In this document: positions 16,658 to 19,500 of the stretch, one piece after another | Position numbering within the stretch: position 1 is the first letter of the stretch | Layout of the letters: every line of letters starts with the position of its first letter | Virus record (IMG/VR): IMGVR_UViG_2529293039_000011 | DNA from: a virus | Taxonomy: Duplodnaviria; Heunggongvirae; Uroviricota; Caudoviricetes | Length of the DNA stretch: 41,625 bases | Reading direction: 5' to 3' (one strand) | Made by a program: the position numbers and the translations under genes | Notes under the pieces: model-generated | Told to the model about the DNA's origin: nothing | Seen by the model: the letters and a program-made list of their open reading frames with translations, nothing else | The model's database searches: none

Positions 16658-16788
16658 ACAAAGCATTCGAACGATATATGCGCCAGCGTTATGGCAATCG
16701 CTACGATCTTACCCGCGATGCTTACGGCTTCTACTGTCGTGAGGTTGTGAAACGAATGTTTGAAGTGTGGTGTCATTGCAAAGGATAG
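16654..16788 (+). CDS. Small protein (44 aa) coupled to rusA, possibly YlcG-like
   Basis: ATG overlaps rusA stop (ATGA); translates MNKAFERYMRQRYGNRYDLTRDAYGFYCREVVKRMFEVWCHCKG; below track cutoff. Confidence 0.4.
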   Translation: MNKAFERYMRQRYGNRYDLTRDAYGFYCREVVKRMFEVWCHCKG

Positions 16789-16799
16789 AGGGGAAGACG

Positions 16800-17423
16800 A
16801 TGAGACTCGAAAGCGTAGCTAAATTTCATTCGCCAAAAAGCCCGATGATGAGCGACTCACCACGGGCCACGGCTTCTGACTCTCTTTCCGGTACTGATGT
16901 GATGGCTGCTATGGGGATGGCGCAATCACAAGCCGGATTCGGAATGGCTGCATTCTGCGGTAAGCACGAACTCAGCCAGAACGACAAACAAAAGGCTATC
17001 AACTATCTGATGCAATTTGCACACAAGGTATCGGGGAAATACCGTGGCGTGGCAAAGCTTGAAGGAAATACTAAGGCAAAGGTACTGCAAGTGCTCGCAA
17101 CATTCGCTTATGCGGATTATTGCCGTAGTGCCGCGACGCCGGGCGCAAGATGCAGAGATTGCCACGGTACAGGCCGTGCGGTTGATATAGCCAAAACAGA
17201 GCAGTGGGGGATAGTTGCTGAGAAAGAGTGCGGAAGATGTAAAGGCGTCGGTTATTCAAGAATGCCAGCAAGCGCCGCATATCGCGCTGTGACGATGCTA
17301 ATCCCAAACCTTACCCAACCCACCTGGTCACGCACTGTTAAGCCGCTGTATGACGCTCTGGTTGTGCAATGCCACAAGGAAGAGTCAATCGCAGACAACA
17401 TTTTGAATGCGATCACACGTTAG
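16800..17423 (+). CDS. Q: Late-gene antiterminator Q, lambda type (207 aa; track ORF begins at 16767)
   Basis: MRLESVAKFHSPKSPMMSDSPRATASDSLSGTDVMAAMGMAQSQ... matches my recollection of lambda Q, including the zinc-binding CRDCHGTG...CGRCKG. Confidence 0.92.
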   Translation: MRLESVAKFHSPKSPMMSDSPRATASDSLSGTDVMAAMGMAQSQAGFGMAAFCGKHELSQNDKQKAINYLMQFAHKVSGKYRGVAKLEGNTKAKVLQVLATFAYADYCRSAATPGARCRDCHGTGRAVDIAKTEQWGIVAEKECGRCKGVGYSRMPASAAYRAVTMLIPNLTQPTWSRTVKPLYDALVVQCHKEESIADNILNAITR

Positions 17424-17465
17424 CGCCATGATTGCCACGGATGGCAACATATTAACGGCATAATA

Positions 17466-17500
17466 TTGACTTTTTGAATAACTTTGGGGAAACTTGACAC
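17466..17500 (+). promoter_or_regulatory. Late promoter pR' with overlapping qut region
   Basis: TTGACT, 17-bp spacer (TTTTGAATAACTTTGGG), GAAACT, in the same position and layout as I recall for lambda pR'. Confidence 0.5.
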
Positions 17501-17660
17501 CAATAATGGGCGTTTTTTACATGTCATTGATGAGTCTCAATAACCTGCCGCCGAGTAGTTTTTATGCTCTGAATTGTATTTGTGTAGTAAACATGCTGAC
17601 TGCAATGTAATAGAGTTTTTTTAGCCTGTAACCTCTTGACGGCATTGAATTGCTTTTGTT

Positions 17661-18419
17661 ATGAGTTGTAAGCCAATGTTATCATCTTGTATTGGGGTGG
17701 TTATGAAGGATGGTGCACTGCTCAGGAGTTCTTCACTTTTTATTGCCTACATGGGATGCCTTGGATGGGGGAGTGCTTATTTCTATGGATGGGGTACTTC
17801 TTTTTACTACGGCTTCCCATGGTGGATTGTAGGTGCAGGTGTTGATGATGTTGCCAGAAGTTTATTTTTTGCAGTTATCGTCATTGCTATATTTCTTATC
17901 GGTTGGGGTATTGGTGTTGTATTCTTTTTCGCAGTGAAAAGAAAACATTCTATGCAAGAGCTAAATGTATTTCGCCTTTATTTTGCTGTGGAATTATTGT
18001 TTGTGCCGGCAATTATTGAGTTTTCTATATTGAGACAGAAGATTCAGGTACCTCTTTTGCTACTGTCAGCAGCGATTGCGCTGGCGGTTACAATTTCGAT
18101 AAGATCTTATGGGCGATTTTTATCGGTATCATGCTTCTATGATAAGCCATTTATAAAAAAACATTTTTTTGAGATTGTGATGATTGCTTTTGTGGCATAT
18201 TTCTGGTTTTTTTCATTTCTGACAGGATATTACAAACCGCAGTTTAAGAAAGAATATGAAATGATTAATTATAATGATGGTTGGTATTATGTTCTTGCTC
18301 GTTATGATAATTGTCTGGTTTTGTCTACTTCTTTCAATGCAGGTAGTAAAAGGTTTGTCATTTATCAATCAGCACAAGATAAGAATCTTCAGGTTGATAT
18401 TGTAAGGACCAGAATTTAA
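17661..18419 (+). CDS. Polytopic membrane protein of unknown function (252 aa from 17661; about 238 aa if started at 17703)
   Basis: Several hydrophobic helices plus a roughly 60-aa C-terminal soluble tail; candidate promoter TTGACG, 17 bp, TTATGA upstream; GGGGTGG site before the internal ATG; visibly AT-rich. Confidence 0.6.
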   Translation: MSCKPMLSSCIGVVMKDGALLRSSSLFIAYMGCLGWGSAYFYGWGTSFYYGFPWWIVGAGVDDVARSLFFAVIVIAIFLIGWGIGVVFFFAVKRKHSMQELNVFRLYFAVELLFVPAIIEFSILRQKIQVPLLLLSAAIALAVTISIRSYGRFLSVSCFYDKPFIKKHFFEIVMIAFVAYFWFFSFLTGYYKPQFKKEYEMINYNDGWYYVLARYDNCLVLSTSFNAGSKRFVIYQSAQDKNLQVDIVRTRI

Positions 18420-18849
18420 TTGGCTGCATAAATAATATTTTAAGTTGCAAGTTGGCTATTCGTAGGAATAGAACCTTAGGCATGCTGAATGCGTTTTCTG
18501 AACATTGTTTTATAAACTGTGTCTGCTTGCTGTTGTGATCCTGCTTTTAGTGATGGTGATGATGGATTTCACCAGCAGGATAATGTTGGTACTGACTGAT
18601 GGCGCTCTGGTCTGCGGCATTGTGGTATTGCTGTGGCCGATGATGAAAAAACAGAATGAATAATCCTTGACTTTTTTGTTTACTGTTTATTAAAAAATCA
18701 ACCGCATGGTGAATCCTCCTTGGAGGGGCTAAATGATCGAGTTTTAAGGGCACGTAGCGAGTTCTGTTTGATCATTGCAGAACTTAGCGGGAGGCGCCAT
18801 GCGTACATCACTAATGTTATTTCCTTCTATCATTTTCCTTGTGAGTTCT

Positions 18850-18876
18850 GGCTGCGCATGGCGCGGCCTTTTTTTT
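18850..18876 (+). terminator. Intrinsic terminator downstream of the membrane-protein moron
   Basis: Hairpin GGCTGCGC-ATG-GCGCGGCC followed by TTTTTTTT. Confidence 0.5.
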
Positions 18877-19284
18877 ATGACCTGCCACTGGCAGATGGTC
18901 ATCCTGTGATTTGATTCCGGTTCCGGCTTTTTAACTCTGTTCCTGTACACGGGAGAAATTCTATGTCGATTAATCGTTATGATATTGGTTACAAGAAGTA
19001 CCACGTATTGTGTTGAGATAGAAAGCATGGTGCCAGAGGTAAATGCAGCAGCATAATAAAAAAGAGCCAGCGCAGAAGAGAACGGGTAAAAGAGTCTGCG
19101 CTGGCGTGGGGATATTCCCCGTGGAGAAATGATATGTAACACACATCGGGAACCTTTCTATATAAACATTATCATTATTGTCAATCATAACAGTCAGGTA
19201 TTATGACGTTTATGCATCAGGGCCATCAGGAATTAACTGGTGGCTTTTTATTGTTGTCAGCTTCCGGATAACGGGAGACGGGGT

Positions 19285-19500
19285 ATGTACCAGATGGAAA
19301 AAATAACAACAGGTGTGTCATACACCACGTCAGCGGTGGGGACGGGATACTGGCTACTGCAGTTGCTGGACAAAGTCTCCCCATCCCAGTGGGTGGCAAT
19401 AGGCGTATTGGGTAGCCTGGTGTTTGGCTTGCTGACGTATCTGACAAACCTTTATTTCAAGATTAAAGAAGATAAGCGTAAGGCTGCGAGAGGTGAATAA
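19285..19500 (+). CDS. S: Class II pinholin, phage 21 S-type (71 aa, dual-start MYQM; track ORF begins at 19240)
   Basis: [66 protein letters not shown] matches my recollection of S21/EssD-type holins; GGGAGACGGGG site upstream. Confidence 0.85.

Follow-up and report, generated by a model that had tools for sequence, protein, structure and literature searches.

A probable cargo insertion site downstream of the late promoter pR' in a lambdoid prophage related to those of pathogenic Escherichia coli

What occupies the enlarged interval between the antiterminator gene Q and the holin gene of a lambdoid prophage? The question is raised by a 41,625-nucleotide stretch of Caudoviricetes DNA (IMG/VR record IMGVR_UViG_2529293039_000011; hereafter the window, whose coordinates are used throughout), in which an earlier sequence-only reading had proposed a late-region accessory (moron) island with a polytopic membrane protein. 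Our analysis indicates with high confidence that the locus, in a lambdoid prophage of pathogenic E. coli, is a known type of site at which cargo (moron) genes insert 3' of the Q-dependent late promoter pR', and that it comprises a two-gene membrane cassette, a convergent pair of Hfq-binding small RNAs (sRNAs), the relic of an esterase gene and a terminator. Both the locus and its class are already in the literature, and both sRNAs have been published. Tree et al. 2014 (Mol Cell) described moron coding sequences (CDSs) that lie downstream of pR' and are separated by convergent sRNAs from the next phage open reading frame (ORF). The island studied here occupies the same position between Q/pR' and the lysis genes and has a foreign and variable cargo CDS and a convergent pair of terminator-ended sRNAs; the structures and terminators of these sRNAs were computed here, and for their sizes and Hfq binding we rely on data published for the identical sequence.

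The interval is bordered on the left by a lambda-type Q gene (16800..17423, plus strand; PF03589, E 1.4e-57) and on the right by the gene of a P21-type class II holin (19285..19500, plus strand; PF04971, E 1.1e-32; 'class II holin family protein' in RefSeq), after which a signal-anchor-release (SAR)-type lysozyme gene comes next. By the ORF and Pfam calls of the window, 1861 bp separate the Q stop at 17423 from the holin start at 19285, versus 676 bp in lambda (Q end 44509, S start 45186), in agreement with the enlargement that had been noted. The higher AT content, previously judged by eye, was borne out by computing GC content and codon usage against the neighbours: the GC content is 0.393 in the gap, compared with a mean of 0.504 over 1861-bp segments of the window (sd 0.048), and is the lowest of any such stretch of the window. 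This effect is driven by the membrane-protein gene, with a GC content of 0.361 and a third-codon-position GC content (GC3) of 0.305, compared with GC3 values of 0.48-0.57 for Q, holin and endolysin. In composition, the island is thus foreign to the rest of the phage.

The gap shares 99.9% identity with prophage PP4 of enteropathogenic E. coli (EPEC) O127:H6 strain E2348/69, and a single mismatch, at 18207, was found between 17300-21574 and PP4. From 21575 on, the window and PP4 diverge sharply, indicating that the window stems from another strain and is related to PP4 as a mosaic, without being PP4 itself. Adding 1041556 to a window coordinate gives the NC_011601 coordinate, by which the published E2348/69 data were mapped onto the window. 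On its upstream side, window 16786-17498 corresponds to lambda 43870-44584 with 96% identity, from Q through pR'. The late promoter pR' with its qut site (17466..17510, plus strand; -35 TTGACT at 17466-17471, -10 GAAACT at 17489-17494) aligns with lambda pR', and in HK97-like and mEp phages this segment has ~90-92% identity with sequences that carry the annotations 'promoter' and 'Qut site'. The lambda homology ends at 17498, directly after pR'/qut and near the late transcription start, so that the lambda 6S RNA and the terminator tR' are replaced here.

The sequence-only reading had recommended comparing the Q-S interval across related prophages, and this comparison agrees with its view of the island as accessory. 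The cassette (17542-18987) is 97.7% identical to phage 434 and to prophage PP2 of E2348/69, and is absent from lambda and from HK97-type phages, in which the match is confined to the pR'/qut segment. Its membrane-protein gene, a member of the TfpB/STM1630 family, stands directly after a lambda-type Q in the window (PP4 type) and directly after a Q82-type Q in phage 434 and PP2, and a Yersinia homologue stands directly after a PF06530-type Q. The occurrence behind three unrelated Q types, the absence from lambda and the foreign composition argue for mobile cargo rather than core phage DNA. The island is present at a coverage of at least 80% in 586 of 5426 complete E. coli genomes.

Other members of the family occupy further contexts, and of all the evidence on the membrane protein its genomic surroundings are the most informative. 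The gene is divergent from eltAB, with estB nearby, on plasmids of enterotoxigenic E. coli (ETEC); it lies beside sseJ on the Salmonella chromosome (STM1630) and beside lpxR in Citrobacter rodentium, and stands alone among housekeeping genes in Haemophilus ducreyi; the family also occurs as a single gene in Pasteurellaceae and Neisseria. A search for related loci by close alignment only returned 6 loci. On the ETEC plasmid contigs (1987-4714), a 58%-identical TfpB gene is located divergently upstream of eltAB, with the STb gene 3 kb away and insertion sequence elements around, and this heat-labile enterotoxin locus may derive from what was once the cargo slot 3' of a phage pR'. The Salmonella and C. 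rodentium genes have the same neighbours on the right (zinc alcohol dehydrogenase, Tar-like chemoreceptor and LysR regulator), whereas the left-hand neighbour is sseJ in Salmonella and, in Citrobacter, an lpxR gene that is split; a link between lpxR and the gene also exists in 434 and PP2. The membrane-protein gene of the E. coli prophage recurs with 100% identity on a 3-kb contig labelled 'MAG: Veillonella sp.', which has most likely been binned wrongly.

The first gene of the cassette (17703..18419, plus strand) encodes a polytopic inner-membrane protein of 238 amino acids that belongs to PF27470 ('TfpB'; 'STM1630 family' at NCBI). The ORF had originally been placed at 17661..18419. It is present, but its start was set too far upstream: all aligned homologues (Salmonella, Citrobacter, Yersinia, ETEC) start at the codon equal to 17703, as does E2348C_1012, so that the real CDS is most likely 17703-18419, and an ORF from 17661 would overlap the -10 element of the promoter proposed in the same reading. 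The protein is identical in PP2 and PP4 (RefSeq WP_001302581, currently named "STM1630 family") and shares 46% identity over 100% of its length with Salmonella STM1630 (P0074; E 2.3e-70). All 107 of the 107 relatives found carry PF27470 under the name TfpB, a name that presumably originates from the Moraxella pilin inversion region, although this origin was not traced in the literature. The PHROG match is phrog_1521, a family of unknown function, and searches against PADLOC and against copies of Pfam and NCBIfam older than the PF27470 model gave zero matches.

The family is small, with 71 cluster representatives recovered among 1.84 billion in a profile search, and its members are found in Enterobacteriaceae, Pasteurellaceae and Neisseria. 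Across 24 sequences with identities down to 45%, 40 columns are invariant, most densely in the Gly/aromatic motif GWGSAYFYGWG.S.YYGFPWW, a pattern that points to a family conserved under constraint. An AlphaFold2 model built from the 24 close sequences was too poor to use (predicted local distance difference test score, pLDDT, 59); the addition of distant homologues raised the pLDDT to 79.7 and gave five long, predicted transmembrane helices followed by a C-terminal five-strand beta domain. The charges counted on the sequence for the loops after helices 2 and 4, +4 and +5, favour an N-in topology with a periplasmic C-terminal domain. Searches of PDB and BFVD, by structure with this model and by sequence, gave no significant match. 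The mRNA of the PP2 copy has been reported as a target of the neighbouring sRNA PasA in RIL-seq (ligation and sequencing of interacting RNAs); the PasA target site is unchanged in the window gene at 17835-17865, and PasA itself is not encoded in the window.

What might such a protein do? Our best guess, held tentatively and a little short of probable, is a lysogenic-conversion envelope factor benefiting the bacterium in an animal host. A table fragment headed "Transcription profiling of avirulent strains" lists STM1630 beside genes of Salmonella pathogenicity island 2, and the family occurs only in Proteobacteria that are associated with animals, where it recurs in company with virulence cargo. 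Alternatively, the protein, perhaps together with the DUF3927 protein encoded next to it, could be a superinfection-exclusion or abortive-infection device by which the lysogen would block incoming phage at the inner membrane. We consider this possible but unlikely: four ORFs searched have no PADLOC match at E up to 0.1, no significant structural match was obtained, the gene occurs as a solitary chromosomal gene without phage context in Salmonella, Citrobacter and Haemophilus ducreyi, and on ETEC plasmids it adjoins toxin genes. A host-adaptation role in the envelope is ranked slightly above exclusion as a best guess, both roles being putative. A bolder proposal, which we regard as doubtful, is that the TfpB/STM1630 protein represents a new kind of envelope protein travelling with virulence cargo, with a fold that has no solved relative; if true, virulence cargo or a host-associated lifestyle might depend on what this protein does to the envelope.

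How the membrane gene is driven is a separate question. A candidate sigma-70 promoter was read from the sequence at 17637..17666 (plus strand; TTGACG at 17637-17642, 18 bp, and the extended -10 TGnTATGAG). The sequence-only reading had named the same site as TTGACG, 17 bp, TTATGA; the hexamers are present, and the site is better read with an 18-bp spacer and an extended -10. The consensus promoter scan did not list this motif for the membrane gene. It returned 5 promoter-like sites against 6.1 expected from shuffles, so that motifs are not enriched and the TTGACG motif alone is no better than chance. The TTGACG and TTATG blocks are, however, kept in the PP2 and ETEC plasmid copies, the latter without Q/pR' upstream. 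In published lysogen RNA-seq of the E2348/69 locus, the baseMean is 6 for Q, 147 for the membrane gene, 2064 for the minus-strand transcript and 5 for the holin gene. The membrane-gene signal is thus ~25x that of Q or holin, which fits expression of this gene in the uninduced prophage and, like the conserved blocks, lends the candidate promoter some support.

Such expression could also derive from pR' itself, which is constitutive in lambda. The protein genes would then have no promoter of their own and would form the promoter-proximal part of a constitutive pR' transcript, with the PasD1 terminator described below serving as the tR' of this phage and the TTGACG motif occurring by chance. The early end of the lambda homology and the loss of tR' are in keeping with this scheme, as are the chance-level frequency of promoter-like motifs and the established biology of lambda pR'. 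Moreover, in a search for an equivalent of lambda tR' upstream of the membrane gene, no hairpin with a U-run folds within 17497-17640 (z 0.3 to 0.9), and the hairpin at 18850-18876 is the first strong intrinsic terminator 3' of pR'. On the other side stand the conservation of the two promoter blocks in an ETEC plasmid copy lacking Q/pR' and the mapped promoter of STM1630 in Salmonella, whose -10 box is disrupted by two single nucleotide polymorphisms in strain D23580. In addition, Rho could halt pR' transcripts within the 200-nt untranslated leader. On balance, transcription from pR' alone is judged the less probable arrangement, though one that deserves serious weight.

The region 18420..19284 downstream of this gene had been described as lacking a convincing ORF. 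This did not hold: an ORF with a TTG start at 18505..18663 (plus strand) encodes a small two-helix membrane protein of 52 amino acids that matches DUF3927 ('TciB-like'; PF13064, 54.2 bits vs a cut-off of 25) and phrog_1470 (E 1.2e-17) and contains two hydrophobic segments. The ORF is annotated in RefSeq and named TciB in phage 434. The TciB label derives from tciB of phage P1, a gene scored as non-essential for which several alternative functions are listed. The sequence-only reading had proposed checking the same region for small transcripts, a suggestion that was apt; it had overlooked the DUF3927 gene and the two convergent, published sRNAs that follow it.

The first of these is PasD1, an Hfq-dependent trans-acting sRNA of 173 nt (18704..18876, plus strand). 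Pearl Mizrahi et al. 2021 located PasD1 in PP4 at NC_011601 1060260-1060432(+), 173 nt, validated it by Northern blot and RIL-seq, and gave EcOnc13 as its homologue in enterohaemorrhagic E. coli (EHEC). The segment 18704-18876 has zero mismatches to E2348/69, being PasD1 base for base, and the published Northern probe matches 18838-18861 exactly. The terminator 18850..18876, an 8-bp stem with 7 G-C pairs followed by U8, was rightly recognized as strong in the sequence-only reading; it belongs to PasD1 and not to the protein gene. In the predicted fold, this terminator forms and the seed UGUGAG (18840-18845) is single-stranded. A candidate promoter read from the sequence at 18667..18696 (plus strand; TTGACT at 18667-18672, 18 bp, TAAAAA at 18691-18696) would place the transcription start 7-8 nt downstream, which is the published 5' end of PasD1 at 18704. 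Through its single-stranded seed, PasD1 would pair with CUCACA sites in core and virulence mRNAs, as indicated by published RIL-seq chimeras, the resulting regulation being putative.

Although zero Rfam matches were found at gathering thresholds in the whole window, PasD1 scores 37.7 bits against the STnc100 model (RF02076; threshold 47), over its full length and with an E of 4e-6, and PasD2, which takes its place in phage 434 and PP2, scores 41.4. These sub-threshold scores are consistent with the common ancestor of PasD and STnc100 proposed in a preprint by Zhu, Shabalina and Storz 2026. Between PasD1 and PasD2, a change in the terminator stem keeps the pairing (U-G to U-A) and a 1-nt indel breaks the overlapping ORFs, differences that point to constraint on PasD at the RNA level. 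A 36-amino-acid ORF lies inside PasD1 at 18799-18909 (plus strand), with GGAGG 4 nt upstream and a start resembling a signal peptide with a lipobox (MRTSLMLFPSIIFLVSSGC). It was considered as a small lipoprotein gene and rejected, as the sRNA terminates before the stop codon of the ORF is reached and the 1-nt indel puts the ORF out of frame with PasD2; it is probably not translated from PasD1. Another ORF, 18720-18914 (plus strand), also passes the 3' end of PasD1.

Convergent with PasD1 is an Esr41-like Hfq-bound sRNA of ~105-112 nt (19057..19161, minus strand; seed CAUUUCUCCAC), the counterpart of EHEC EcOnc32. From a 5' hairpin it runs through the single-stranded anti-Shine-Dalgarno sequence CAUUUCUCCAC and a small hairpin of GGGG/CCCC to a terminator stem of 11 bp, and its fold has a z score of -5.5. 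A candidate minus-strand promoter (CTGACT/GATAAT) was found at 19197-19168. The sRNA aligns with Esr41 at 72% with a shared core, and it does not reach the threshold of the Rfam Esr41 model (RF02676; 32.3 bits vs a gathering threshold of 102), a true Esr41 used as positive control scoring 108.6. In Sp3 of EHEC strain Sakai, Tree et al. 2014 found EcOnc32 (minus strand, ~112 nt) ~240 nt from EcOnc13 (plus strand, ~187 nt), and this spacing agrees with the layout of the window. The Esr41-like stretch is 100% identical in O157:H7 and O111 genomes, and together with the pre-holin stretch it is at least 99% identical in 565 records.

In E2348/69, the minus-strand transcript is booked to E2348C_1013, with a baseMean of 2064 and a log2 fold change of -2.9 in the hfq comparison, its level thus depending on hfq. 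The RIL-seq chimeras of 'E2348C_1013' fall only on 19057-19116(-), and their partners include the entC 5' untranslated region (263 chimeras), the nlpD-rpoS leader region (537) and dnaK. Overall, ~808,000 chimeric fragments involve E2348C_1013, versus ~24,000 for PasD1. E2348C_1013 itself (WP_012578864; 132 amino acids, 18744-19142, minus strand) looks like an annotation artefact over the Esr41-like sRNA; the ORF overlaps PasD1 as well. The seed CAUAUCAUUUCUCCAC (19116-19141, minus strand) pairs almost perfectly with the Shine-Dalgarno sequence and AUG of entC (E2348/69 555750-555769); the duplex has an energy of -22.4 kcal/mol, a value that 0 of 500 shuffled targets attain (-11.0 +/- 2.8), and the pairing is in keeping with the 263 entC chimeras. 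The Esr41-like sRNA most likely blocks ribosome binding through its anti-Shine-Dalgarno seed. Its pairing over the Shine-Dalgarno sequence and AUG predicts translational repression, suggesting that it would repress entC and with it enterobactin synthesis.

It is very unlikely that 18700-19150 is protein-coding rather than a source of sRNAs. Under that alternative, a plus-strand protein of 62-64 amino acids ('putative membrane protein' in 434) and the minus-strand 132-amino-acid E2348C_1013 of RefSeq would be made. Neither reading frame is interrupted in the window, public records annotate both, and the 36-amino-acid ORF has a good GGAGG site and a signal-peptide-like start. However, the plus-strand ORFs extend beyond 18876, so that the abundant 173-nt RNA would contain no stop codon for them, and their frames are not kept from PasD1 to PasD2, owing to the indel. 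In PP2 the minus-strand ORF contains a frameshift and an internal stop, it gives no family match, and the minus-strand RIL-seq reads cover only 19057-19116, the 3' part of the sRNA. Moreover, discrete sRNAs of ~187 and ~112 nt are seen on EHEC Northern blots.

Between and beyond the sRNAs lie an esterase relic and a terminator. The relic (18963..19072, plus strand) consists of the first 25 nt of a nanS-p-type SASA sialate esterase gene (18963-18987) joined to about its last 70 nt and 15 nt of downstream sequence (18988-19072). The high-identity homology to PP2/434 ends at 18987, 25 nt into the 1851-nt esterase gene, and 18988-19072 matches the 3' end of that gene at 80.7%. The link to the toxin slot of Shiga toxin (Stx) phages that had been drawn from the sequence was apt, as in 434/PP2 the cassette is followed by a nanS-p-type esterase typical of Stx-phage late regions, of which the relic remains here. 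The terminator-like hairpin that had been noticed just before the holin gene was recovered by the terminator scan as an intrinsic terminator at 19219..19257 (plus strand; hairpin 19219-19247; fold -16.2 kcal/mol, z -3.2). It forms part of a conserved pre-holin module: of the 2377 genomes that gave a match at all, most have the stretch 19216-19290 at ~93-95% identity in front of class II holin genes, and the phage 434 record has a terminator annotated at the equivalent place. Further downstream, a gene for a Rha-family regulator (20624-21184, plus strand), directly 3' of Rz and 5' of the packaging genes, is another accessory insertion in the late operon. Finally, a view of the island as deletion debris that is decaying in a defective prophage and has no present function accounts for the reduction of the esterase gene to ~110 nt of relics and is nevertheless scarcely credible given the at least 99% identity of the Esr41-like and pre-holin stretch in 565 records, the coverage of at least 80% of the whole island in 586 genomes, the strong residue conservation of the protein family down to 45% identity, and the abundant, Hfq-bound transcripts.

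Several points weigh against the cargo-site reading. The expression data are all transferred from E2348/69 and Sakai by sequence identity, and the divergence after 21575 indicates that the window stems from a strain other than E2348/69. Some RNA-seq reads assigned to the membrane gene may belong to PP2, whose copy is nearly identical. The promoters named here are motif calls, and such motifs are not above the level of shuffles; with no terminator found between pR' and the membrane gene, an own promoter may be unneeded for its expression in the lysogen. The function of the membrane protein is not given by any family, fold or defence-system match. In addition, STM1630 was picked from macrophage RNA-seq data and tested in macrophages along with STM2475, and of the two deletion mutants only that of STM2475 is reported to have replicated less inside the cells.

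With these points taken into account, a moron site 3' of pR' remains the preferred interpretation, and a working scheme can be proposed. In the lysogen, Q and the lysis genes would be silent, and the membrane-protein mRNA and both sRNAs would be present and bound to Hfq, the sRNAs in abundance, as in the published data on the identical locus. That the sRNAs exist, associate with Hfq and form chimeras with host and virulence mRNAs has been shown for E2348/69 and would apply to the window by identity of sequence; we infer that they regulate these chimera targets. After induction, as expected from lambda biology, Q-modified polymerase from pR' would read through the PasD1 and pre-holin terminators, and the resulting transcript would cover the whole island and then the lysis genes. 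The locus is a textbook case of EPEC/EHEC lambdoid prophages carrying cargo of benefit to the bacterium in the pR' slot, and finding it again adds little in itself. If true, the strong Hfq-bound pairing of the Esr41-like sRNA with the rpoS leader and entC would mean that carrying the prophage affects how the cell acquires iron and responds to stress.

Comparison with known systems places each part of the island. Salmonella STM1630 has the same start and length as the window protein, and is chromosomal rather than in a prophage. The late region of 434/PP2 has the order lpxR - ylcG - Q82-type Q - membrane protein - TciB - PasD2 - esterase - PasA - holin; the window differs from it in Q and pR', in the deletion of the esterase gene, and in carrying the Esr41-like sRNA in place of PasA. 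Relative to PasD1/PasD2 of EPEC E2348/69, the window has the neighbours described in the corresponding papers, namely Q and the holin/lysozyme operon, whereas the typical PasD context includes lpxR; lpxR, a full esterase gene and PasA were looked for and are absent from the window, the esterase that follows PasD2 being deleted here.

Esr41 of EHEC, encoded on the island SpLE1, represses cirA, chuA and bfr. The window sRNA has the same build, including the single-stranded anti-Shine-Dalgarno seed UUUCUCCA, and its partner entC, like the Esr41 targets, belongs to iron metabolism. The two differ in that the terminator loop of the window sRNA is 18 nt longer and its 5' hairpin is different, and in genomic site, the window sRNA lying in a prophage late region and Esr41 in SpLE1 near iha. 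In Stx phages, stx and then a nanS-p esterase lie between Q and S; the window carries no toxin domain in any gap ORF by Pfam scan and no tRNA genes of the kind found in Stx phages, and shares with them the slot and the relic of the esterase. The EHEC moron site of Sakai Sp3 (Tree et al. 2014) shares the position between Q/pR' and the lysis genes and the order of a cargo CDS followed by a convergent sRNA pair, with the sRNA stretch 100% identical in O157:H7; the two show no structural difference, the cargo of the window being a TfpB-family gene instead of stx and its Q being of the lambda type.

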